From: an uncultured delta proteobacterium
GTDB lineage: Bacteria; Desulfobacterota; BSN033; UBA1163
Length of the DNA stretch: 64,000 nt
Assembly (NCBI GenBank): GCA_963827685.1
Contig: CAWHBU010000006.1
Location: 497,932 to 561,931 of the forward strand
Direction: 5' to 3'
Shown: piece by piece, positions 43,927 through 58,941 of the stretch
How positions within the stretch are numbered: the stretch's first letter is position 1
Layout: each line of letters begins with the position of its first letter
Made by a program: the position numbers and the translations under genes
Notes under the pieces: generated by a model
What the model saw: only the letters and a program-made list of their open reading frames with translations
The model's database searches: none
What the model was told of the DNA's origin: nothing

Positions 43927-44643
43927 ATGGATAGCCACTATGGGCGATCGGAGACGGAAGGTTTATCGATTGTGAGGTGGTGCTTTCCTGCCTCTCAAAT
44001 AACTGAAATAGACGTTGATCCTTTTATCCAGCGGGTGACGTCACGACGGATCCGTATGGAGAAGAGGCGGCGATTAGAGGAGGTCTGGGAGAAAGCGGGA
44101 GAGTCGATTGGCTGTGAGACAGTGCCTGGAGTGGAGCATGAGGCAAAGGTAATGGTGGAGGGGCTGAGGCAGATACGAGAGACGATCAAGGAGACGGAAG
44201 ACAAAATTCAGGAACTATGCGAACAATTCTCGGAATATCGGCCCCTGTTGAGCATTCCTGGCTTTGGTCCTGATGTATCGGCCAAAGTCTTAGGAGCGAT
44301 AGGAGATCCGGATCGATTTCAGAATGGAAAACAAGTGCTGAAGCAGTCCGGGTTAGACCTCAGTGCGAATCGGAGTGGAAAGAATTCGGACAAGGCGATT
44401 CCAGAGATTTCCAAGAGAGGCAAGGCCGATCTTCGCTATGCACTATATCAGGCGGCCCTGATTGCCTCGACGAGGAATCAGGATTTTATGCGCTACTATA
44501 CGAGGAAGCTTCGTGGCCGGGAGAGAGAAAAAGGGGTTCATATGAAGCTGCGAGTGAAGCTATCGGCCAAAATGCTTCTGATCGCATGGACCTTAATGAA
44601 GAAAAAGGAGGCGTTTAATCCGGCTTATCTAAACGCCGAATGA
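43927..44643 (+). pseudogene. IS110-family transposase, C-terminal part only
   Basis: LLSIPGFG, RFQNGKQV, NRSG (Tnp serine), ISKRGKADLRYALYQAA; RuvC-like N-terminus absent. Confidence 0.85.
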
Positions 44644-45151
44644 AACCATTTGTCATTTTCGACGAGAGAGCCGAGAACCAACGTGGAGGCTCATTGGAGA
44701 CCTCGTGCGGGACAATGCTGGGCCTCTCGCTGAACTTTGGAATCTGGATAAAGGATGATAGGCGGTCCCGCTTTGGCGGGACACACCGGATAATGATAAC
44801 GCTGAGATTCAGAGTTCGTTATGGGCGAGAGATTCGTCGAAACCAAAACAACAGACTCTCTGAAGTGATTTGACGGGAGAAGTGTTCTCAGCAACAAGCG
44901 ATCATTTAGAATCTGTTGTTTTTAAAGGTTTTATTTTTTCTTACTTTTTCTCTTGACAGAAGCAATATAGGATGTCCCCTTTATAGGACAGAACGTGATG
45001 TTACGACATTAAGTTCAGCAGCGAAGCGGTTACAGATAAGGTCTAAGACGGGCTTGGATTTATCGGAGAGAAAGTTATGAGAAGCCGCTCCCTAAATTTC
45101 AATATTGCAACCCCGACCCGAGACCCCCCCTCATAAATTTAAGAAGTCTCA

Positions 45152-45191
45152 TCAAGGTTACTTAAATAACTTAAGAACGTCCCCATGGTTC
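45152..45191 (+). repeat. 40-bp direct repeat, copy 1 (copy 2 at 48125-48164)
   Basis: TCAA(G/A)GTTACTTAAATAACTTAAGAACGTCCCC(A/C)TGGTTC, 38/40 identical. Confidence 0.9.
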
Positions 45192-45316
45192 CTCCTGCTC
45201 TTGTAAGACCTCCATCCGTCCCTCCCCTTCTGCCCTTTGCTGGGTACACCAGAAAGTAACCTTGGGCTCGTTCCGATTGTCCGAGGGTATGCCGTTATCT
45301 TTACCACAGTCAGAGA

Positions 45317-45342
45317 ATACTATAGTCTGTAGATTTTTAGTC
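45317..45342 (+). promoter_or_regulatory. C-box operator of an R-M controller protein
   Basis: ATACTATAGTC-TGTA-GATTTTTAGTC resembles the PvuII/BamHI-type GACT-N3-AGTC-TGTA-GACT-N3-AGTC box; upstream of the C gene. Confidence 0.75.
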
Positions 45343-45386
45343 TACACTGATAGAACATATATTTTGTTCTAACTCGCAAAGGAGAG

Positions 45387-45659
45387 ATGATTATGACCCC
45401 GGAAGAGGCTTTTGGTAAAGTTCTCAAAGAAATCCGGCATGAGCGTTCTCTTTCACAGGAAGAACTTGGCTTCGAGAGTGGCTACCACCGAACGTATATC
45501 AGCCTCCTTGAACGGGGGAGAAAGAGTCCTTCTCTAAATACGATATTTCAGTTGGTTGCTGCCTTAGGAGTCTCACCTTCTGAGATTCTCCGCCGAACTG
45601 AAGCTCGAATTAGTAAACTCAGCAGAAGAGGTAGCGGAGAAAGGAGAAAGACGAGATGA
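45387..45659 (+). CDS. XRE-family controller (C) protein
   Basis: FGKVLKEIR..LSQEELG..HRTYISLLERG..PSL; overlaps the REase start (ATGA). Confidence 0.9.
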   Translation: MIMTPEEAFGKVLKEIRHERSLSQEELGFESGYHRTYISLLERGRKSPSLNTIFQLVAALGVSPSEILRRTEARISKLSRRGSGERRKTR

Positions 45660-46264
45660 AAATAATTAGAGTTGAGCGCTTGATCGATGCCGGGGAATTT
45701 TCTGGCACTGAAACATGGAAGACGATAGAGAAGCATATCATGGACGCTATCAAAGCTATAGAATGGCCACCTGGCTCAGGTTCCTTCACACTTTACGACC
45801 AACCAGGTAAGGCCAGAGGCGAAGGGAGTGGTGTGAAACCAATCAAAGATGCTTGTATGGCCTATTTGAAGTCTCTTGGCTGGACCCTCGAAGCATCAGT
45901 TGATATTGCTACTTTGAAACACCCGGGTCCCATGGATGCTACCTACCCAGTCGGGGACCGCCTTTTTTGTGCAGAGTGGGAGACAGGAAATATATCTTCA
46001 AGTCACCGTGCAGTTAATAAGATGGCCTTAGGGATTCTTAAGAAGGTCCTGATAGGTGGTATATTGATTCTACCGACAAGGGGGATGTACAAATACCTTA
46101 CAGATCGGGTCGGCAACTTCCCTGAATTGGAGCCCTATTTCCCCCTTTGGAAGGCTTTGAAAGTAGAGGAAGGGCTTCTTGCTGTTATTGCAATTGAACA
46201 TGACGCAGTGAGCCAATCTGTGCCTCGTATCCCGAAAGGTACAGATGGTAGAGCTCTTCAATAA
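45656..46264 (+). CDS. BamHI-family Type II restriction endonuclease
   Basis: SGVKPIK, GPMD, EWETGNISSSHRAVNKM, YLTDRVGNFPELEPY resemble BamHI motifs. Confidence 0.85.
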   Translation: MKIIRVERLIDAGEFSGTETWKTIEKHIMDAIKAIEWPPGSGSFTLYDQPGKARGEGSGVKPIKDACMAYLKSLGWTLEASVDIATLKHPGPMDATYPVGDRLFCAEWETGNISSSHRAVNKMALGILKKVLIGGILILPTRGMYKYLTDRVGNFPELEPYFPLWKALKVEEGLLAVIAIEHDAVSQSVPRIPKGTDGRALQ

Positions 46265-46269
46265 TTGGA

Positions 46270-47691
46270 TTAGCTTCGCTGCAACATGACAATGAATTCG
46301 GTTCTCATGGTATTCGCCATTCCAGTTATTTGGCGACTGAGTTTCCGAATAAGGTGTAAACCATGTGGTTTTCCGAGTTCGACCAATAGCTCATCGATAC
46401 CCTTCACCTCATCAGCAGATACCTCAAGAATCTTACTTAATTGATTGTTATTTGTCCCTACGACAATTGTGCATATCCGACCTGGCCGCAGTACCCGCGC
46501 ACATTCGGAAAGTATCTTTTCCATATCTGTCTTATATAGGTCAAATTTTTGCCGAAGAGTCCTTCCTCTTAAACCGATCATTTCTTCTCGAAGTTTGTCA
46601 ATGTCAGTACCCAGAAAACTTAGGTGAAAGGAATCGTTCTCTAGATAGTCGATAGCAAAACTGTAAGGCGGGGAAAAAATAATACCTTCAATACAGGAGT
46701 CTTGAATAGACAGACCCCGAGCATCTCCTTCCAGGGCTTTTGACTCGGCGAGTTCTGATTCTGCTCCAGCAAGCACGAGTTGAATCTTTTCTGCCACGAA
46801 TAAGTAGCGTTCAAGGATAGCACGAAATTGATCATAAGGAGACTTTCGGTCACTTCTTTCCGAGTATCCAGCTCCATCCAAATAAGCCAGAAGGAGGAAA
46901 TTATAAACTTCCGGTATCTCACATCCTTCGGGAAGATCTCCTCTACTTGCAGACCTCGCTACGTATTTGTCACCTGAGTCCTTTATGGAAAACAGGTCTC
47001 CAGAGTCTCTTTCAAAGCGTTTCTTACTGCCTTGTTTTGGCCGACCGGCCAGTCTCACGAAATGGTCATACACTGACCTACAATTTTTCAGAGCTTCACG
47101 CACAGGGGCCAGCGGAACGGTCAGCGCATCTATTTTTACCTGAGTCATAAATTGACAAAAAGGACTTGCATCGACTCCAATAGACTTGATCCCCATAAGT
47201 TTTGCTTCTATGAGGACAGTTCCAGACCCCATCATTGGGTCGAGAACCGTATCCCCGGGTTTTAGACCCATTACGTTGATCACCCCTTTAATCATCTGGG
47301 GATGGAATTTGCCTCGATAAGGGAATAAACCGTGGGTTGCGTACCCGGTCTTAAACTGATTTGTATGGAAGAACGAGCGTAACCTTGAAGAAGAATGCTG
47401 AGGTAATCGAACTGGTTCACCACTGCACATAAGGAAATGTCTCGTTAATGTGTCGCCAACCCTAGCGAAATAAGCTCCGTTCCGAATGATTTGCTCATCG
47501 GTCAGAATCTTGCTTTCATAATAAGCTAATTCCAGTTCATAAACCTCGTTCAACTGGGGCACGAGCTCAAGGTGCTTGGGAAAAAGATTATCTTTAGTTC
47601 CGCGAGACAAAATGCCAGTAATGTTCTCAGTTTGATAGGATGCCTCCTCTTCCTTTATAAGTGAAACCTGTCTACTATGCGATCTTTTCAT
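46270..47691 (-). CDS. Amino (probably N4-cytosine) DNA methyltransferase, alpha motif order
   Basis: HGLFPYRGKF, LDPMMGSGT (motif I) before FSPPY (motif IV); convergent with the REase. Confidence 0.88.
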   Translation of the reverse strand: MKRSHSRQVSLIKEEEASYQTENITGILSRGTKDNLFPKHLELVPQLNEVYELELAYYESKILTDEQIIRNGAYFARVGDTLTRHFLMCSGEPVRLPQHSSSRLRSFFHTNQFKTGYATHGLFPYRGKFHPQMIKGVINVMGLKPGDTVLDPMMGSGTVLIEAKLMGIKSIGVDASPFCQFMTQVKIDALTVPLAPVREALKNCRSVYDHFVRLAGRPKQGSKKRFERDSGDLFSIKDSGDKYVARSASRGDLPEGCEIPEVYNFLLLAYLDGAGYSERSDRKSPYDQFRAILERYLFVAEKIQLVLAGAESELAESKALEGDARGLSIQDSCIEGIIFSPPYSFAIDYLENDSFHLSFLGTDIDKLREEMIGLRGRTLRQKFDLYKTDMEKILSECARVLRPGRICTIVVGTNNNQLSKILEVSADEVKGIDELLVELGKPHGLHLIRKLSRQITGMANTMRTEFIVMLQRS

Positions 47692-48124
47692 CCTGGTTTA
47701 TTCCCCGTTGCCTATTCAATCTGGTCTTCTCTATCTCTGCAATTTAATATCATTAACAAAGCTCTTTTGCAAGGAGATTAGAGGAGGGCGTAGGTTCTAA
47801 AACAAAGAATTTGGCATCAGAGTTGCTACATGCTGCGAAATCAACCGAAGCATGTGCATCTGTCGCTCGAAAAGTCTCTATTCGGATTTACGCATTCCTG
47901 CATAGCCAACGCGGTAGCCTCCTGCGTAGGCGGAGGAAATGGAAACTGGAAAAAGGTCTCTCTTTACCGATCGGGATAAAAAAAAGGAATGGATACTTTC
48001 TAAGAATCTAACAAACCTGATTGGATTGACATAAATAGAAATGTCCTTTTATTGATTAATTTATAATTTTATGGACGTCTCTCCTTTCCAACGAAATCAG
48101 ATGAAGAGACATTCGTACGGTTCT

Positions 48125-48164
48125 TCAAAGTTACTTAAATAACTTAAGAACGTCCCCCTGGTTC
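48125..48164 (+). repeat. 40-bp direct repeat, copy 2
   Basis: See 45152-45191. Confidence 0.9.
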
Positions 48165-48812
48165 TGTCAATTTAGCTGAAAACTCAAGCCACTCCCTGTG
48201 GTTCGTAAGTATGTCTCGTCTTACGCGGATCAACCATTGGCGGGTGGTCACTCCGTTGAGAAGGTCCCGCCTAAGAGGCAATGAGCAATACTTCTTGGAC
48301 ATTAAAAGGAATTCCTTTTCCTTCCGCGACATGTTTGCCTGAACCATGTCAACCATGTCGAAGAGCTTGAGATATGTAGTGAAGAGCAAGGCCAGATAGT
48401 CCCACCTTGAGTCGTCATATTTGAGATTCTCAGCGAGATCAATTTCATTCTGGAAATGGGCAACTTCTGGGCAAGGGTTTCCAGAGTAAAACTCGCAGAC
48501 AGACATTGCATTCAACAGGAATCTCACTAATAGCTCCTTATTGATTTTTGTGTCGGGATCTCTAGGAAAATCATCAGGCCCGTAGTGAGGCAATGGTTCG
48601 GTAAGACCTTTGCCTAGTGAAATGTTATCACCGCCCCAAAAGTCACTGGCATCCCTGAAGCTGCTACCTATTCTGCTTTTTATCCGACGGTACCATTTTT
48701 CTTCCCCATTAACTTTTCGATTGACGGCCCACAGCAAGAGATCACAACACTGAACTCCTGCATTGGATTTGTCCACAATCGTGAATGAGACTTCAGGGAA
48801 GGGGGGGGTGAG
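48144..48812 (-). pseudogene. 5'-truncated hypothetical gene (DUF3800-like GVQCCD motif)
   Basis: DKSNAGVQCCDLLLWAVNR; no credible start, overlaps the truncated nuclease ORF. Confidence 0.45.
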
Positions 48813-49170
48813 GATTTGTTTTAATAGTTCCAGAAATTTTGTATTTCCTTCTAGTCCATAGTGTCCGAGGGACTTCAAAAGGAATCCCCTCACGTTTTGC
48901 CTCAACTAAAACCAAGTTTCTTTTTCCATATGTAAGTAGAAAATCCAAATATCCCTCGTGAACGGGTACTTCCCTGCTGAAAGTATCTTCAGGCCAGCCT
49001 AAAGCTTCCTTTAGTATCCGGTCGATGACCTTTGCTCTGGTGTCCGCTTCGCTCACTTGCCCTCTCTTCTTACAGAAATCGCCAAAAGTAGTGTAGATTT
49101 CTGACAGAACGCTTAGGCCTTGATCTGGATCTATCATACCCCTCTGCACCCTGGTAGTTTTGGGGGCCAT
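48793..49170 (-). pseudogene. Truncated HsdR_N-like PD-(D/E)xK nuclease domain
   Basis: SEADTRAKVIDRIL..LGW..EV..YLDFLL..VEAKR, then an abrupt end. Confidence 0.65.
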
Positions 49171-49459
49171 TCTATCTGCTCTTGATAAAATAATCAATGA
49201 GAAAAATGCATCTTATTTAGACCCACCTGTAGCCGTCTTGGCCTTGGGGAAAATACCTATCATTTAGATAGAGTAGGCGAGCGGGGCGTTGTTGACTGAG
49301 TTGACTTATTCAGATCCAATCATTCGTGGGGTTTTTTCAAAAGCTAAAAGGGGACAACTGTATTACTTAAATTCAAACATGAACGCAGCGCTCGCCGATG
49401 CAAATGAAGGGAACAGGGTGTCAGCTCGTTTAAATATGACAGATTCGATCTTGGGTAAT

Positions 49460-49488
49460 TTGACATAACAGCGGAGTGATAGTATAAT
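49460..49488 (+). promoter_or_regulatory. Consensus sigma70 promoter of the vapBC operon
   Basis: TTGACA(49460)-17 bp-TATAAT(49483). Confidence 0.8.
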
Positions 49489-49516
49489 GGTAGCAAAATG
49501 GTATCGGAGGTCGGTG

Positions 49517-49735
49517 ATGGCTGCTTTGTTGATAAAAAATATTCCCCGCGAATTGCATAAGTGGTTAAAACGCGAAGCGGAACGAAACCGTCGCTCCATG
49601 ACTCAACAGGCGATTGTGGTTCTTGAGGAGAGGATGCGGCGTTTTCGGCCGGTGAGGTTTCCGCTTCCCGTGCAGACCCGGACGGTCCTGACGGCGGAAT
49701 TTATCGATCGAGCCAAGCGCGAAGGTCGTGTATGA
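49517..49735 (+). CDS. vapB: Ribbon-helix-helix (FitA/Arc-like) antitoxin
   Basis: LLIKNIP.ELH..LK..A..NRRSM; GGAGG RBS; ATGA overlap with the PIN gene. Confidence 0.8.
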   Translation: MAALLIKNIPRELHKWLKREAERNRRSMTQQAIVVLEERMRRFRPVRFPLPVQTRTVLTAEFIDRAKREGRV

Positions 49736-50205
49736 TCGTTGTGGATTCGAACATCGTCGCGGCGCGAAACCTAACAAGTTCTCTGACAGCTGAAGCCAAA
49801 CAGGTTGAAGAAAAGGATCCCGTATGGATTGTCCCTGTCCTATGGCGATACGAATTCCAGAATATCCTGGCCTTCGCGATCAAAGCGAAACAAATCAAGC
49901 CGGAACAAGCTTTGGATACTTGGGGAAAGGTTTCGAAGGTCCTGATTGAGAACGAATGCGAACCTTCTGCGTCCAAGGTAATCGACCTCGTCGCACAATA
50001 CGGGATCACCGCCTATGACGGGCAGTTTATTGCCGTAGCCCTGGAGATGGGAATTCCATGCTTGACCGAGGACCGAGAACTACAGGAAAAATTTCCCGGT
50101 ATTGCGATTTCAATGGTTGAATTCCTGAAGCCCGAATCTACCCCCGAGCCTACATATGTCGTTCGGGAAGCCAAGGCGAGGTATCGCAAGAGGAAAAGGA
50201 GATAG
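49732..50205 (+). CDS. vapC: VapC-family PIN domain toxin
   Basis: IVVDSN, YEF.N, TAYD, LTEDREL acidic PIN residues. Confidence 0.88.
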   Translation: MIVVDSNIVAARNLTSSLTAEAKQVEEKDPVWIVPVLWRYEFQNILAFAIKAKQIKPEQALDTWGKVSKVLIENECEPSASKVIDLVAQYGITAYDGQFIAVALEMGIPCLTEDRELQEKFPGIAISMVEFLKPESTPEPTYVVREAKARYRKRKRR

Positions 50206-50718: not shown

Positions 50719-52403
50719 CTAATTTCTTGTCAACTGCCGGTATTTGATCCGGTGGGGCTGATCCGCCGCAACTCCAAGACGACTCTTTCGGTCGGCCTCG
50801 TACTCGGAATAGTTTCCTTCGAACGAGACAATGTTGCTCTCACCTTCAAAGGCCAGAATATGGGTGGCGATACGATCGAGGAACCACCGGTCATGGCTGA
50901 CCACCACCACGGAGCCCGCAAAGTTTTCGAGGGCCTGCTCCAGTGCCCTCAGGGTATTCACATCCAGGTCATTTGTCGGCTCGTCCAGAAGAAGGACGTT
51001 CGCTCCTTCCTTGAGCATTCGTGCGAGGTGGACGCGGTTTCTCTCTCCCCCAGAAAGGACCCCAACCTTCCTCTGCTGATCGGCGCCCGAGAAATTGAAG
51101 CGGGCCACATAGGCCCTTGAATTGATCTGTCTGCTGCCAAGCTGGATGGTATCCTGTTTTTCGGAGATCACCTCCCAGATGGTCTTCTCCGGATCGAGGA
51201 TGTCGCGGCTCTGGTCGACGTAAGCCATTTTGACCGTTTCGCCCATTCGTATCGTTCCGGAATCCGGGTTTTCCTGTCCTGTAATCAATCGCAAGAGCGT
51301 GGTCTTGCCTGCACCGTTCGGACCGATAATCCCGACGATCCCGCCGGGTGGAAGCGAAAAGGAGAGATTCTCCATCAGAATCCGATCCCCATATGCCTTG
51401 GTGACGCCACGGCTTTCAATCACGACGCCTCCGAGCCGTGGTCCAGGAGGAATATAGATTTCGAGCTCCTTCGCCACCTTTTCACTCTCGTCTGTAAGGA
51501 GGGTTTCGTAAGAGGTGATTCGGGCTTTCGATTTCGCATGTCTTCCTTTTGGCGACATCCGGATCCACTCCAGCTCCCGCTGCAGCGTCTTCCGACGCTC
51601 GCTCTCCGCCTTTTCCTCCAGCCTGAGGCGATTCTCTTTCTGCTCAAGCCATGAAGAGTAGTTTCCTTTCCACGGAATGCCTTCCCCCCGGTCGAGCTCC
51701 AGAATCCATCCGGCAACATTGTCAAGAAAGTAGCGGTCATGAGTCACAGCGATGACCGTTCCGTCGTATCGCTTCAGATGCTGTTCAAGCCACGCCACGG
51801 TCTCCGCATCGAGATGGTTGGTCGGCTCATCCAGAAGCAGGATGTCGGGCTTTCGCAGCAGGAGCCGGCACAGGGCCACGCGCCTTCTCTCTCCGCCCGA
51901 AAGGACCTTCACCGGTGTATCGCCTGGAGGGCAACGGAGGGCATCCATGGCCATTTCGAGGCGTGAATCGAGGTCCCAGGCATCGAGGGCATCGAGTTTC
52001 CCCTGTACTTCACCCTGTCGCTCGATGAGGCGATTCATCTTCTCTTCCGAAAGAGGTTCGGAGAACCTCTCGCTGATCCGGTTGAATTCTTTTAGAAGGT
52101 CGACCATCTCCTGAACCCCCTCTTCCACCACCTCCTGCACCCTCTTGGTCTCGTTGAGTTTGGCTCTTGTTCAAGAAAGCCGATGGTGAAACCGGGCGTG
52201 AGGATCGTCTGTCCGTTGAATTCTTTATCGACATCGGCCATGATGCGCAGGAGAGAACTCTTCCCGGAGCCGTTGAGACCGATCACGCCGATCTTGGCTC
52301 CGTAAAAATAAGATAGGGAAATGTCCTTCAAAATCGACCTTTTTTCGTGATACTTGCTCACGCCGATCATGGTGTAAATGATTTTCTGTGATTCGTTCGC
52401 CAT
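50719..52403 (-). pseudogene. ettA: Energy-dependent translational throttle EttA (ABC-F), split by a 1-nt frameshift near 52159
   Basis: YGAKIGVIGLNGSGKS..QEP in ORF 52092..52403 continues LNETKRVQEVVEEG in ORF 50719..52140; GIPWKGNYSSWLEQK; two ABC domains. Confidence 0.9.
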
Positions 52404-52794: not shown

Positions 52795-53043
52795 TCAGCG
52801 GTTAGTATCGACCTGCTCTTCTTTTTCTTCAATCAGTTTACTTTTCTTCTCTGAGCCTGAACCGACAAGGATCGTGACGATATAAAACAATCCCACTAGG
52901 ACAAGACCGATGGAGAAAATACTGAAAAACAGCTTCGGTTTCCGGACCATGAGGTAGAGGAGGCCCAGCACAATAACGATGGCGATTATCGCATGGTTCT
53001 GAGCAAAGGAAACAATGCTGTTCACGAATCCTGAAAAATCCAC
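52795..53043 (-). CDS. Small 2-TM hypothetical membrane protein
   Basis: GGAGG RBS, GTG start, two hydrophobic segments, charged tail. Confidence 0.7.
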   Translation of the reverse strand: MDFSGFVNSIVSFAQNHAIIAIVIVLGLLYLMVRKPKLFFSIFSIGLVLVGLFYIVTILVGSGSEKKSKLIEEKEEQVDTNR

Positions 53044-53241
53044 GAGGCCTCCCTGCTATAAGGCATTATACCATCAGCAAGGTCGATTGCCCTTCTTTCC
53101 AAATCCCGTACGATCAGGTGCTGCAAAAGTCTGAGTATGTCTAAGTGAGACACCCAGGGCACCGGGTCAGATCAAGACTTAAAAATACTCACATAGAAAA
53201 CAACGTCTCCTGGGTTCTTCTGCGGCTTTATGTCCTGATCA

Positions 53242-54210
53242 TCATTCGCCGTATAGAGTGGTCTCGATTTGTTCCCTCGACCGAATCTCTCCTGCCAACT
53301 TTTGGGCAGCCTTTCTGTCCTCATACTTGCTGACAAGTACCCTATAGATAGGGGACCTGTCTTTCGTGACGCCCGGCTGGGTAAACGCATCGTATCCTTT
53401 TTCCCGAAACGTCTTCGTGAGGGCCTGTGCCCTCTCTTCATTCTTGAAGGCTCCCAGCTGGACGGAGTAGAGCGGTTTGCGCGGTGGTTGGGACGGGGAC
53501 TCCGATGAGACCGAAGAGGGCTGCTCAAGTGGTGTGGATGGTACTGAGGATGCGGGCACAGAGGCGTCTGCAGCGTTCCTCGCAGGGGGCAACTGCGATT
53601 GCGATCCCGCCTTAGGAACTGCCGATGGAACTCTCACGGGAGCTACTATTGCCGGAGAGGGCGGAACCTTCCGGGTTGGCATGAACTCCTGATAAGCCAG
53701 ATAACCCGTTCCGGTAATCACCATGAGGACCACGATGCCAATCGCCGGCAGAAGAAAGGCAGGGCGTTTTTTCTCCGCTCTCCCGACGGTCCGTGGCGAG
53801 GCGGGCGGTTGGTTTTCTTTGGGGTGCTTGGAAGGAGGCGTCTTGCCCAAAATCGCTCCTGTCTTCTCGGTAAGCTTTTCCGGATCGAATGTCAGTTCCA
53901 GAAAATCCACGATCCCGTAATCCTTGAAGTACTGGGAGCCCAGTGCTTTTTTCAGGGATGCGAGAATAACGATAGGGACCTTTGTTAAGAGCGGAATGTC
54001 ATGAATTGCCTTGCAGGGTTCGAGTCCTGTCGGGCTCAGCTCAGGGGGCCTGATGTAGATAAGCGAAGGCCTGAGCAATTCGGCCATTTCAGCATTCACA
54101 TCTTGGCTTGAGACGGGATAGATCAGGTAGTTCTCTGCCTCGAGAGTGGTGGTCATTCTCTGATCCATGTCCTGGCCTGCGTCTATGACGAGTATCGTTT
54201 CACCTGCCAT
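53242..54210 (-). CDS. Pseudo-receiver / TM / Pro-rich linker / SPOR domain protein
   Basis: CheY-like N-terminus (TILVID..LRPSLIYIR..GLEPCKAI..VPIVIL) lacking the phospho-Asp and Lys; one TM; C-terminal YSVQLGAF..A....KGY..YRVLV SPOR. Confidence 0.85.
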   Translation of the reverse strand: MAGETILVIDAGQDMDQRMTTTLEAENYLIYPVSSQDVNAEMAELLRPSLIYIRPPELSPTGLEPCKAIHDIPLLTKVPIVILASLKKALGSQYFKDYGIVDFLELTFDPEKLTEKTGAILGKTPPSKHPKENQPPASPRTVGRAEKKRPAFLLPAIGIVVLMVITGTGYLAYQEFMPTRKVPPSPAIVAPVRVPSAVPKAGSQSQLPPARNAADASVPASSVPSTPLEQPSSVSSESPSQPPRKPLYSVQLGAFKNEERAQALTKTFREKGYDAFTQPGVTKDRSPIYRVLVSKYEDRKAAQKLAGEIRSREQIETTLYGE

Positions 54211-54270
54211 AAGTTCTCTCGGGGTCGTACGAAGGGCCGACGCCTCATGCCTTCAAGCATCGGCATAGAC

Positions 54271-55299
54271 TCAAAGTGTTTCCCAATATTTGGACGGCAT
54301 GTCCTGGGCAAGCTTGAGCGCGCCGTTCGCGCCTGCAAAGAGTGGGTCTGCAACGCGGGTGACCTTGCAGGTGCCGTATTCCTTCAAGGCATCCTGCAGG
54401 TACTCGGCAATACCTCTGATAAGGCTCCCTCCGCCCGCAAGAACGATATTGTTCTTGATCTTCATCTGGAATTCGGGATCAAACCGGGCGATCATCTCGG
54501 TCGTGGTCTCGACGAGTGACGGCAGCATACTCTCGCAGGCCCGCCGGATCTCATCCTTGATGTCATGCATGACCGGCTTGCCATCCACCGGCAACTCTAC
54601 GCGAATCTGTTCATGGATGTCCCGCACAAAACTGAATTTCTCCTTAAACTGCCGCACCATGTTCTTGTTGAATTTTGAGTTTGGATATTTCTCGATGAGA
54701 TAATTGAAGAGCTGTTCGTCGATATAGTCGCCCGCCGTGAGGATCGTCCTCTGGTCTTCTTCGGAGGGAATCGTCCCATGCATGATGCAGAAATCGATGG
54801 TCCCGGCACCGATGTCGATGATGAGTGCGTCGTTCAGCAGATTCATTCCGTAGGCGATCGCAAAAGGCTCCGATACCACCATGAGGGTATGCACATATTC
54901 CGCAACCGCCCTCCGGATCGCGAGCTTGTTGACTTTTAGCGATTCGGCGGGCACCCCAACCACCGCATGAATCTTCTGGCCGGGCTCAGGCTTTGCAAGA
55001 TCGATAAGATGTCTGATGATTTCCTTGACCGCCCTCTCGCTGCTTTCGATCCCTTCCTTGATGATGCCTCGTTCAAGGGGCCTGCAGAAATCGAGGGAAA
55101 GCCGGTGCTGCAAAGCCTCGGCTCCGAAGAGTACCGGTTTGCCGACGACCTGCTCCGCGATGAAGTCCTTCGGCCAGCCGACGTAGCTCTCAATCCATTC
55201 CCGGATACCATGACTCGAAGAGATCGCACTTCGTGATGTTCCAAGATCGATGCCGACAAACAGGACATTTTCTTGCTTCTGCTCATCTTTTGGCTTCAT
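54271..55299 (-). CDS. MamK-like actin-family ATPase
   Basis: GIDLGTS, VVSEPF, IDIGAGTID, AGGGS actin motifs plus MamK-like segments (VGWPKD, GTIPSEEDQ, KEKFSFV, P..YW.L); AAGGAG RBS before ATG 55299. Confidence 0.88.
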   Translation of the reverse strand: MKPKDEQKQENVLFVGIDLGTSRSAISSSHGIREWIESYVGWPKDFIAEQVVGKPVLFGAEALQHRLSLDFCRPLERGIIKEGIESSERAVKEIIRHLIDLAKPEPGQKIHAVVGVPAESLKVNKLAIRRAVAEYVHTLMVVSEPFAIAYGMNLLNDALIIDIGAGTIDFCIMHGTIPSEEDQRTILTAGDYIDEQLFNYLIEKYPNSKFNKNMVRQFKEKFSFVRDIHEQIRVELPVDGKPVMHDIKDEIRRACESMLPSLVETTTEMIARFDPEFQMKIKNNIVLAGGGSLIRGIAEYLQDALKEYGTCKVTRVADPLFAGANGALKLAQDMPSKYWETL

Positions 55300-56386
55300 G
55301 GGTAAGGGCTCCTTTATTGAGATAATCGAAAATACCGGCTGCAAGATACCTGGCAATATTCTCTCTGTGACTTTCAGAGCTGAGTTCCCGCTCCTCTTCG
55401 CGATTGCTGAGGCACGAGACCTCTGCCAGCACGGCGGGTACGTCCACTCCGAGAAGGACCACGAAAGGTGCCCTCTTTACGCCGTGGTTTTGTATGTCTT
55501 CACTATGTTTTCTGCTGTTCAGAAACAGATTTGCCTGAATGGATTCTGCGAACTCTTTGGACTCCTGAAGCTTCATGGTCTTACCAAGCCTTTCCATGAC
55601 TTCCTTGAAATCGCTCAGCCCGTATTCCAACCCTGTGTTTTCTTGCTGGGCGAGCCTGAGTGTTTTTTCGTCGTTGGAAGGTCCAAAATAATACGTCTCA
55701 ATGATGTTAATGGGTTTGCGCGGCAAGTAATTGAGATGAATTGAGATGAAGAGGTCAGCTTTCGCTTCCTGGGCAAGGGTAACCCTTTTTTGAAGAGGTA
55801 TTGACGAATCGTCCTCCCTCGTCATGAGCACATGGTAGCGGCCGCTTTTGACCAGATGGGTCTTCAATCTCTTAGCGATATCGAGGGTAATATCCTTTTC
55901 CATGGTGCCCATCTTTCCGATGGTGCCCGAGTCGGTCCCGCCATGGCCCGCATCGATCATGATCGTCTTAATTTTCAGGCCAAGCATGCGGCTGAAAGAT
56001 ACATTGTGATTGTTTACAAAGGCAATGAACTCGGAGGTGTTCGCTGTGCTTTCCGAAGAAACGTCTGCCGTGGGAACAAGAGGGTATTCACTCATATCCG
56101 GGGTCAGTTCTGCTGAAGCACCTACCGCGGGAACGGGAGCAGGGAGTGTGTTCATATTCGCGGTCTGTTCTGCTGGCGCGAACGAACTGCCCATGTACTG
56201 GCCGTGTATCAGAACCGCCAAGACACCGAGCACCGCGGACAAGAGAATTTTCTTCAGGGGGAAGGATCTCCGTCGTGATAGGGCTGGGCGGCCACTACGG
56301 AGCATGAGAAGGTTCTCTTCATACACACCACGGAGCATGTTTTGACGAGTTTTGAACTCATTCTTTCCAGTAAAGATGGAAATCAT
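55283..56386 (-). CDS. N-acetylmuramoyl-L-alanine amidase (Amidase_3)
   Basis: IDAGHGG, EKDITL, FISIHLN, VLAEV Zn/catalytic residues; N-terminal SRRRSF plus hydrophobic segment; start uncertain. Confidence 0.92.
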   Translation of the reverse strand: MISIFTGKNEFKTRQNMLRGVYEENLLMLRSGRPALSRRRSFPLKKILLSAVLGVLAVLIHGQYMGSSFAPAEQTANMNTLPAPVPAVGASAELTPDMSEYPLVPTADVSSESTANTSEFIAFVNNHNVSFSRMLGLKIKTIMIDAGHGGTDSGTIGKMGTMEKDITLDIAKRLKTHLVKSGRYHVLMTREDDSSIPLQKRVTLAQEAKADLFISIHLNYLPRKPINIIETYYFGPSNDEKTLRLAQQENTGLEYGLSDFKEVMERLGKTMKLQESKEFAESIQANLFLNSRKHSEDIQNHGVKRAPFVVLLGVDVPAVLAEVSCLSNREEERELSSESHRENIARYLAAGIFDYLNKGALTHEAKR

Positions 56387-57263: not shown

Positions 57264-57638
57264 ATGTCACTTTTGTCACTGTTCTCGCTCGCGGAGCTAT
57301 CAGCACTATCACATCTCATCATGCGGATACTTGTCCTCTTGCTGGTGGAGGGTGAATGCGTGCAGCTTGTCCAGCAATCAAGCGGTAGGCCTGCAGTGCT
57401 GATCAATTTCATACTAATAGGGATCTATGCTCTCGGATTTATCTTGGGCGCAGCCAAGATAAACATGGGTTATATGATAGGCATGATTGCCGGCGCTATA
57501 AACATCATCCTCAAGGTTGCCGTGGTTATTCAGGGACACGAACATTGGCCCCATAGGCCCTATCTGTACATATTCCAGTCCCTTGTGGTCATTTACTTTT
57601 GCTATATAGCGTACGAAGGCGCGGCATCCCTTCCATGA
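57264..57638 (+). CDS. 4-TM membrane protein, paralog A
   Basis: AAGGAG RBS; clear paralog of 58564..58941 (SHL..R, E.ECV, GHEH.P, QS..YFCY). Confidence 0.85.
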   Translation: MSLLSLFSLAELSALSHLIMRILVLLLVEGECVQLVQQSSGRPAVLINFILIGIYALGFILGAAKINMGYMIGMIAGAINIILKVAVVIQGHEHWPHRPYLYIFQSLVVIYFCYIAYEGAASLP

Positions 57639-58563: not shown

Positions 58564-58941
58564 ATGAATAGTTTAAGAAAAATTCGATCTGAGACCCTGG
58601 CGGCGATGTCACACCTTTTACTGCGTGCGCTCTGTTTGCTGATTATTGAATACGAATGTGTACTTTTTTTCCAGCAATCATTGAGAAACCGCGCAGTGAT
58701 CTTCAATTCTAGTCTGGCGTCTATCTTTGTACTCGGATTTATTATCAGTATGATAAACAGAAGAATCGGGTTGATCATCGGGATGAGCGCTGGGATTTTC
58801 AACATCATCGTGAAGATCATAATAGTGGTATCCGGGCATGAACATTATCCCTATTGGCCAATTGTATGGATTACACAGTCTGCGATGGTAACCTATTTTT
58901 GTTATAGAGCATTAAAAGCGGAAGCTATACACGTGCAATAA
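58564..58941 (+). CDS. 4-TM membrane protein, paralog B
   Basis: AAGGAGG RBS; paralog of 57264..57638. Confidence 0.85.
   Translation: MNSLRKIRSETLAAMSHLLLRALCLLIIEYECVLFFQQSLRNRAVIFNSSLASIFVLGFIISMINRRIGLIIGMSAGIFNIIVKIIIVVSGHEHYPYWPIVWITQSAMVTYFCYRALKAEAIHVQ

Follow-up and report, generated by a model that had tools for sequence, protein, structure and literature searches.

The stretch analyzed here, a window of 64,000 nucleotides (nt) from the genome of an uncultured delta proteobacterium (GTDB lineage Desulfobacterota; assembly GCA_963827685.1, contig CAWHBU010000006.1, positions 497,932 to 561,931), carries a cassette of four open reading frames (ORFs). All of them lie on the minus strand and span positions 52795-56386 of the window. 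They encode a peptidoglycan amidase, an actin of the MamK family, a protein composed of a receiver-like (REC) domain, a transmembrane (TM) segment and a SPOR domain, and a small protein with two TM segments. The genes and one signal between them are:

55283-56386, minus strand: amidase gene, 367 amino acids (aa), Amidase_3
54271-55299, minus strand: MamK-family actin gene, 342 aa counted from the ATG
53242-54210, minus strand: REC-TM-SPOR gene, 322 aa
52795-53043, minus strand: gene of the small 2-TM protein, 82 aa, two hydrophobic segments
55309-55312, minus strand: GGAG, ribosome-binding-like as read from the sequence, 9 nt before the actin ATG and within the coding end of the amidase

The ORF coordinates bear out the layout described in an earlier interpretation that was made from the sequence alone (here referred to as the sequence-only reading), namely co-oriented genes with a 17-nt overlap, a gap of 60 nt and a 2-TM gene further on. 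The overlap lies between the amidase stop codon TGA (55285-55283) and the actin ATG (55299-55297), and translation of the two genes may be coupled. The actin and the SPOR gene are separated by 60 nt, the SPOR gene and the 2-TM gene by 198 nt. A longer actin ORF starting with TTG is present, but the homologues begin at MKxKD. A scan for promoters and terminators gave counts no higher than in shuffled sequence. Among the data sets listed as containing the locus there was no RNA run, which speaks neither for nor against its expression.

Bacterial actins take part in cell wall metabolism, where MreB guides wall synthesis and FtsA anchors the divisome. MamK is viewed as an actin that positions organelles and is confined to magnetotactic bacteria. 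The cassette belongs to a clade of MamK-family genes of uncultured bacteria which, in every locus that could be evaluated, is paired with the gene of a putatively membrane-tethered peptidoglycan hydrolase, and a direct contact between both proteins is predicted.

The assembly comprises 5.23 Mb in 14 contigs (94.5% complete, 8% contamination), and the window is situated at one end of a contig of 562 kb. The same genome also encodes a canonical FtsA (484.8 bits), an MreB-like gene on contig C4, three other SPOR proteins and one other Amidase_3 protein. Therefore, the cassette represents an additional system.

Family membership of the actin and search for magnetosome genes

The actin scored 421.4 bits with the NCBIfam model of MamK (NF040964, cut-off 400; 422.2 bits in the whole-genome scan), 220.7 bits with the BeeR model (cut-off 530) and at most 84.9 bits with MreB models. 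Among solved structures, Magnetospirillum MamK (5jyg, 5ljv) could be aligned without gaps over actin residues 6-341 with 305.9 bits, compared with 148.3 bits for BeeR (8r2n) and 59.7 bits for the best MreB chain. The assignment to MamK and not to MreB in the sequence-only reading is thus upheld by these scores and by the position of the protein in the MamK-family part of a tree rooted on MreB. All motifs that had been named for it (VGWPKD, AVVGVPA, VVSEPF, DIGAGT, KEKFSFV, NIVLAGGGS and P..YW) are present in the alignment with the solved MamK.

Within these motifs, D18 (DLGTS), D162 and G164 (DIGAGT) and G289-291 (AGGGS) were invariant in 37 homologues and E144 (SEPF) was conserved in at least 90% of them. 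Presumably these residues take part in nucleotide binding. As judged from family membership, the cassette actin would polymerise in an ATP-dependent manner. With a mean column identity of 86% (37 homologues) it is more conserved than the amidase (57%, 40 homologues) and the SPOR protein (32%).

The tree of 143 actin sequences was calculated with a quick IQ-TREE run (LG+G4, SH-aLRT support only) and rooted on the MreB-like protein of the genome itself. All 51 amidase-linked actins and one further representative formed a single clade with a support of 99, and the window actin did not fall inside MreB. The sister of this clade holds representative P0122, the pair being supported with 99 as well. 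The cluster-type MamKs of Nitrospirota, i.e. those of magnetosome gene clusters, grouped by themselves with a support of 100, and yet another clade contained P0140, which of the representatives is closest to the solved Magnetospirillum MamK (463 bits to 5jyg). The order of the MamK clades contains many open forks and long branches. The amidase-linked actins are distinct from the MamKs of magnetosome clusters; no branching order is claimed.

The representative search also returned, in the range P0126-P0146, 14 proteins of 523-1232 aa which form a clade and combine a C-terminal MamK-like domain with a long N-terminal part. In the three proteins scanned the latter had no Pfam match. Representative P0160 is an FtsZ (Tubulin and FtsZ_C) fused to a MamK-like domain.

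Since the actin exceeds the MamK cut-off, the host could be a magnetotactic bacterium whose magnetosome cluster was not assembled, or the gene could be a relic of a lost cluster. Transfer of such clusters between Nitrospirota and Thermodesulfobacteriota, including Syntrophales, is reported in the available part of PMC9376291. We nevertheless give this explanation hardly any credence, given the separate clade of the cluster-type MamKs and the following results.

The window contained no match to mam genes, either with five NCBIfam Mam models or by tblastn with the ORFs of a magnetosome cluster, in agreement with the sequence-only reading. In the whole genome, the best scores remained below the respective cut-offs for MamI (25 of 80 bits), MamP (38 of 300), MamQ (84.6 of 250), MamO (91 of 800) and MamE (166 of 800). 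The genes behind these sub-threshold matches of the five models were PDZ, protease and LemA genes of a generic kind, dispersed over the contigs. The weak MamI match (25 bits) is located among housekeeping genes, between ribosomal L25/YchF and pyrB/pyrC, and was rejected as a match of hydrophobic segments.

As a reference cluster we used the 20 kb adjoining a cluster-type MamK in a Nitrospirota genome (G111, locus L092), comprising 22 ORFs on one strand with two MamQ-like genes within 10 kb of MamK. By tblastn, 15 of these 22 ORFs had no match in the window genome. The other seven matched generic genes at dispersed positions, among them LemA, HtrA, TPR and one CDF transporter. A magnetosome cluster was consequently not detected in the 94.5%-complete assembly, a result which does not prove absence. 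Nothing in this assembly points to magnetosomes. The statement derives from a detailed examination of the window genome; for the other genomes with the amidase-linked type, the clade of the actin and the neighbouring amidase gene served as criteria.

Both kinds of MamK could be compared in 401 evenly sampled genomes of Nitrospirota, where a MamK-family gene was present in 37 and 30 loci were returned. Fourteen loci without amidase scored 447-507 bits and were 43-45% identical to the window actin. The remaining 16 scored 417-441 bits with an identity of 63-81%, and in all of them an amidase gene was located directly upstream of the actin. In four of five genomes with the amidase-less kind, MamQ-like genes were located within about 10 kb on the same contig, and the amidase-less loci are therefore regarded as cluster-type MamKs. 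None of the 37 MamK-positive genomes held both kinds.

According to PMC9376291, magnetosome genes were not detected by BLASTp in Nitrospirota that are not magnetotactic. It seems, therefore, that the amidase-linked genes of the MamK family were not noticed in that work.

In the reference genome, a divergent actin-like protein of 415 aa (48 bits with the MamK model) is encoded beside a cluster-type MamK (locus L090, G111:C1:2424000-2443999). This locus also holds a response-regulator-like protein of 296 aa beside MamK as well as purL and purF. A second copy of the 415-aa actin is present elsewhere in G111.

Conservation of the amidase-actin pair

A scan of species-representative genomes yielded 49 loci, 46 of which carried an actin with 74-96% identity to the window actin. 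These 46 close loci belong to Thermodesulfobacteriota (some titled Syntrophaceae) and to many assemblies of Nitrospirota/Thermodesulfovibrionia. The amidase gene was located directly upstream of the actin gene in all 42 loci that could be evaluated. For the sister clade, 80 metagenome loci were sampled with the representative P0122, which is 51% identical to the window actin, and here an Amidase_3 gene was directly upstream in all 55 evaluable loci. Linkage elsewhere, on which the sequence-only reading had depended, is hence found for the amidase and the actin, which form the invariant core of the cassette.

In both the actin and the amidase tree the Thermodesulfobacteriota sequences, including those of the window, were nested within Nitrospirota sequences. 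Since the two trees agree, the pair has been inherited and moved between phyla as a unit.

When all flanking ORFs were clustered, the amidase, the actin and the REC-SPOR protein were the only recurring families. The variable neighbours, of which 10 family representatives were scanned, comprised ScpA, glycosyltransferases, MarC, a phosphoesterase, TPR, a hexapeptide transferase, radical-SAM, PPDK and a histidine kinase. The anchoring of an organelle or machine, suggested earlier as one possible use of the cassette, finds no support in the genes adjoining it.

The third gene of the window encodes a protein with a C-terminal SPOR match (E 8.4e-15). Three segments were distinguished:

53836-54210, minus strand: receiver-like domain (residues 1-125), R54 at the phospho-acceptor position
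53692-53760, minus strand: TM segment (residues 151-173), hydrophobic stretch, model helix 158-171
53248-53469, minus strand: SPOR domain (residues 248-321), family match and model

The structural model shows a (beta-alpha)5 fold for residues 1-125 with a predicted local distance difference test (pLDDT) value of about 94 and the SPOR domain at 248-321 with about 95, the linkers being disordered. The top Foldseek matches of the receiver-like domain were the receivers of CheY4 (TM-score 0.84), MtrA and FrzS. Among 30 homologues, SPOR was found in 27 and Response_reg in 25. D10 was invariant, and the position after beta-3 was occupied by N in 15, K in 10, R in three, and Q and D in one sequence each. 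With the phospho-acceptor Asp replaced in 29 of 30 homologues and a confidently modelled receiver fold, the domain is a pseudo-receiver, as had been proposed from the sequence. Scores with the models of FtsN and DedD were far under the cut-offs and the protein is therefore not an orthologue of either.

The third gene was less constant than the pair. The REC-SPOR gene followed directly downstream of the actin in 33 of 41 evaluable loci, and two of the eight exceptions retained short remnants. In the sister clade the receiver-SPOR protein of the window had a downstream match in only one of 55 loci. Third genes of other kinds were found among the 80 sister-clade loci, all on the strand of the actin: proteins of the type X-TM-SPOR, X being an uncharacterised cytoplasmic domain (19 loci), PilZ-TM-domain proteins (14) and a small N-terminally anchored protein (11). 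The C-terminal domain of the PilZ-TM protein reached 20.3 bits with AMIN (cut-off 20.5) in one of two sequences and showed nothing in the other. Judged by these domain contents, the third component appears to be an exchangeable bitopic protein. From the idea of a self-contained module of cytoskeleton and wall enzymes, the conserved linkage can thus be retained, but not an invariant set of three genes.

The small 2-TM protein had no family match above threshold. By tblastn, matches with 56-95% identity were found in 10 loci (L004-L012 and L041), exclusively in the Thermodesulfobacteriota group; none was obtained in the Nitrospirota loci. In L008-L010 the gene is located upstream of the amidase, so that its place in the cassette varies.

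The distribution of the cassette is patchy. In a sample of the phylum of the window comparable to that of the Nitrospirota, 17 of 401 genomes carried a MamK-family gene, and the amidase-linked kind was restricted to the window genome, L098 and L104. A 100%-complete genome from the genus of the window organism and ten other sampled genomes from its family contained no MamK-family match with an E-value of 1e-40 or better. Carriers are common among uncultured bacteria of sediment, peat, wetland and groundwater.

Several loci showed additional or altered copies. The last 1.9 kb of contig C1 of the window genome (locus L002) contain a second amidase-actin pair that is cut by the contig end at actin residue 132. 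This actin copy is 95% identical to the window actin. The accompanying amidase is spread over two reading frames, possibly owing to a frameshift or to a mistake in the assembly. An element of 1.4 kb, with at least eight repeats in the genome, is located about 1 kb upstream of the pair. In the amidase tree the L002 amidase grouped with other assemblies (L006, L007) and apart from the window copy, and therefore represents either a second acquisition or a second strain in the same bin, contamination being 8%. In two Nitrospirota assemblies (L043, L044) an ORF of 150-166 aa that runs in the opposite direction splits the actin gene. The two ORFs belong to one family and look like an insertion element. 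One assembly harbors three cassettes (L032, L044, L052) in differing states of decay.

The patchy distribution, together with the nesting of the window's clade in Nitrospirota and the transfer between phyla that it implies, could also be expected of a module of a mobile element, in which a ParM- or Alp-like segregation actin is combined with a SAR-like tethered lysin of a prophage, plasmid or integrative element. The partial second copy next to the 1.4-kb repeat where contig C1 ends, and an IS110 transposase, VapBC and BamHI restriction-modification genes within 10 kb in the window would fit such an origin. We consider it very improbable. A scan of 20 flanking proteins gave no match to phage or plasmid families, the remaining flanking ORFs having only been clustered; the loci are situated on contigs of up to 2.2 Mb among housekeeping neighbours; and no gene of a centromere-binding adaptor is present. 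Furthermore, the amidase contains an insert of the AmiA/B/C type and does not have the short form of a lysin, and the 86% column identity of the actin extends across the clade.

The amidase and its predicted contact with the actin

The amidase matched Amidase_3 (PF01520) at residues 142-352 with an E-value of 1.8e-46. Its catalytic domain aligned end to end with AmiC (4bin, 116.6 bits), AmiB (3ne8) and AmiA (8c2o). The residues H148, E163, H217 and E322 were invariant in 40 homologues; some of these we take to be zinc ligands. From the N-terminus onwards the protein consists of a conserved tail of 45 residues, one TM helix, a variable linker and the catalytic domain. Three features were located:

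56300-56359, minus strand: N-terminal helix (residues 10-29, ..ILRGVYEENL..), from conservation, predicted actin-docking peptide
56195-56248, minus strand: TM helix (residues 47-64), hydrophobic stretch, model helix 44-64, preceded by a basic stretch
55508-55681, minus strand: insert of the catalytic domain (residues 236-293), aligned with the regulatory-helix region of AmiA/B/C

In the tail, N25 and L26 were invariant and L18, G20, Y22 and E23 conserved in at least 90% of 40 sequences. Residues 6-30 are helical in a model of low confidence, and the sister-clade amidases carry a similar motif, LLRxxVxxN, ahead of the TM helix. According to the positive-inside rule, the N-terminus would face the inside and the tail would be cytoplasmic. 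No match to an AMIN domain was found in the amidase, and its N-terminus does not have the signal-peptide layout of the soluble enzymes AmiA/B/C. The sequence features thus suggest a bitopic, membrane-tethered amidase of the AmiA/B/C type.

The insert at residues 236-293 is aligned in 4bin, 3ne8 and 8c2o and skipped by the amidases of about 180 residues, 5emi and 1jwq. Of these, 5emi aligns to about residue 235 and resumes at 294, and 1jwq ends at about residue 234-235. Within the insert L245, A246, E249 and N250 were invariant in 40 homologues. Presumably it corresponds to the autoinhibitory helix of the division amidases AmiB and AmiC.

Since a periplasmic enzyme with a conserved cytoplasmic tail is coupled to the gene of a cytoplasmic filament protein, a direct contact was suspected and binding was modelled. 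The actin was combined with amidase residues 1-45 in three runs and three controls, using our own alignments. In the calibration of the tool, 58 of 80 solved complexes and two of 110 mismatched pairs attained the mark, figures which apply only roughly here, own alignments having been used. The predicted complex reached ipSAE values of 0.82, 0.82 and 0.84, the best control 0.00. The runs shared at least 77% of the contacts, with a pLDDT of 63-65 for the partner.

In the predicted interface, tail residues 10-29 contact actin residues 113, 125-129, 139-142, 150-156, 175-177 and 330-342, which constitute the cleft between subdomains IA and IIA and the C-terminal helix. Within the amidase-linked clade these actin residues were nearly invariant. 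The prediction supports docking of the tail in the IA/IIA groove, and the coupling to a filament that is backed by modelling would run through the N-terminal helix of the amidase, whereas the sequence-only reading had placed it in the receiver-like domain. Helices bound in the barbed-end groove of actin-fold proteins are known from the solved complexes ParM-ParR and actin-WH2.

It might be argued that the two genes are co-transcribed for co-regulation only, with an ordinary separation amidase and an actin that positions another cargo. The groove is in fact kept across MamK clades which have other partners. This separation of functions seems improbable to us, considering that the genes are neighbours in all 42 and all 55 evaluable loci over an actin divergence of about 50%, that their reading frames overlap and that the trees are congruent. 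It would also be difficult to reconcile with the conserved tail which this periplasmic enzyme has in the cytoplasm, and with a predicted interface that scored 0.82 against 0.00 in the best control.

Proposed role and surroundings of the cassette

The reading that we hold, with reservations, to be the probable one is that the cassette encodes a filament-tethered, AmiC-type amidase for spatially controlled remodelling of the cell wall. The amidase would be held in the inner membrane by one helix, with its AmiA/B/C-type domain and the regulatory insert in the periplasm and its N-terminal helix in the cytoplasm, docked in the IA/IIA groove of the actin beside the C-terminal helix of the latter. 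The position or dynamics of the filament would then set where peptidoglycan loses its peptides. The denuded glycan strands left by the amidase would be bound by the SPOR domain of the bitopic third protein, whose cytoplasmic pseudo-receiver may signal to the filament or the amidase tail, or recruit one of them. The outcome would be a self-reinforcing patch of wall remodelling, similar to FtsA-FtsN-AmiABC at the septum of E. coli. Within this scheme we infer that the actin forms filaments, how the membrane proteins are oriented, that the amidase is autoinhibited, that SPOR provides feedback, and whether the cassette acts at the septum or along the side wall.

The scheme combines traits of several known systems. 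With MamK (5jyg, 5ljv, 5ljw) the cassette actin shares the sequence family, the nucleotide-binding motifs and the C-terminal P..YW helix, but it belongs to a clade of its own, has the gene of an amidase as partner and occurs without a detected magnetosome cluster. The FtsA-FtsN-AmiA/B/C system of E. coli likewise comprises a cytoplasmic actin fold, a bitopic SPOR protein and an amidase that makes the SPOR ligand. This likeness, drawn from established knowledge, concerns the way of working and not family membership: the cassette actin is of the MamK type, the amidase is membrane-anchored and predicted to touch the actin, and the SPOR protein has a pseudo-receiver in place of the N-terminal peptide of FtsN. 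In MreB-RodZ and the elongasome a cytoplasmic actin homologue is also coupled via bitopic proteins to periplasmic wall enzymes; there MreB guides synthases, whereas the partner in the cassette is a hydrolase. In ParM-ParR of plasmid R1 a short partner helix occupies the IA/IIA groove, as is predicted for the cassette pair. Here, however, the partner is a membrane enzyme and not a DNA-binding adaptor, and neither a centromere nor a plasmid context is present.

The closest parallel outside magnetotactic bacteria is BeeR of Verrucomicrobiota (8r2n), described in the available part of PMC11929497 as a MamK relative of non-magnetotactic bacteria with unknown function. BeeR is distant from the cassette actin (148 bits to 8r2n), and an amidase link is not reported in that part of the paper.

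The same parts could also act elsewhere in the cell, with a filament along the side wall that places the amidase for curvature, shape or local opening and not for septal splitting. The MamK-family filaments of magnetotactic bacteria run along the cell axis, and FtsA, other SPOR proteins and a second amidase are already available for division. The related Mad28 is reported, in the available part of PMC12713370, to localise by cell curvature. We regard a role at the side wall as rather unlikely, though worth considering; no shape genes are linked to the cassette, and SPOR domains and AmiA/B/C-type amidases are, as established knowledge, best known from the septum.

Several points weigh against a filament-tethered amidase with SPOR feedback. 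The feedback loop cannot be essential, REC-SPOR being missing from eight of 41 loci, and the patchy distribution means that the function of the cassette is dispensable. The amidase model has a mean pLDDT of only 51 and gives no structural support to the autoinhibition that we assume. The score of the complex expresses the confidence of the model, and the pose may partly echo solved helix-in-groove complexes. Moreover, the groove is not specific to the amidase-linked clade; many of the actin residues in the predicted interface are common to the cluster-type MamKs, in which the groove is largely kept. Should neighbouring subunits of the filament touch each other through this groove as well, binding of the tail might be restricted to monomers or to the ends of filaments.

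In a wider and speculative version, to which we assign a low likelihood, the cassette would stand for a third actin-based wall system beside MreB and FtsA. A dynamic MamK-family filament would use its barbed-end groove to grip an autoinhibited amidase by the cytoplasmic tail, and would move, cluster or switch the enzyme from within the cell, tuned by interchangeable bitopic sensors (pseudo-receiver, PilZ or other domains combined with SPOR or AMIN-like domains). The magnetosome cytoskeleton would then be an offshoot or sister of an older wall actin, with the groove as adaptor site of the family.

By full-text search, with subscription journals and supplementary files outside its reach, no paper was found which treats MamK together with a SPOR domain. 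The same holds, again with subscription journals outside, for MamK and N-acetylmuramoyl-L-alanine amidase. Full-text searches for a MamK-type actin of non-magnetotactic bacteria with an amidase, and for an actin in an Amidase_3/SPOR neighbourhood, returned no relevant paper. That some non-magnetotactic genomes hold MamK homologues is mentioned in the available part of bioRxiv 10.1101/682252 (2019), citing Lefevre 2013. The actins treated in the portion of Awal et al. 2023 accessible to us are from magnetotactic bacteria only. The cassette is real and strongly conserved, and apparently undescribed.

If the proposed role is true, it would add a new cytoplasmic control of a potentially lethal wall-cutting enzyme. 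The MamK family would gain a function beyond magnetotaxis, with a bearing on the origin of the magnetosome cytoskeleton. It would also call for caution in the use of mamK as a marker of magnetotaxis, as amidase-linked genes pass the NCBI threshold for MamK in genomes without a detected magnetosome cluster.

The surroundings of the cassette in the window were inspected as well. The region 43927-50205, which adjoins it, encodes an IS110-family transposase, a BamHI-type endonuclease with a DNA methylase and, judged from the translations alone, a VapBC-like antitoxin-toxin pair. At 50719-52403 on the minus strand, the gene of an ABC-F (EttA-like) ATPase is split into overlapping ORFs of 103 aa and 473 aa (overlap 52092-52140), which is a frameshift or a sequencing error.

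On the other side of the cassette, two paralogous membrane proteins of 124-125 aa without family match are encoded on the plus strand at 57264-57638 and 58564-58941, around the gene of a PEMT/ICMT-like methyltransferase. The three genes are located downstream of an ArsR-type regulator.

Elsewhere in the genome, the near_HgcAB family (NF040962) had two matches above its cut-off, at C4:642651-642854 and C5:303698-303907. This could mean that genes for mercury methylation are present in the genome, perhaps as two copies.

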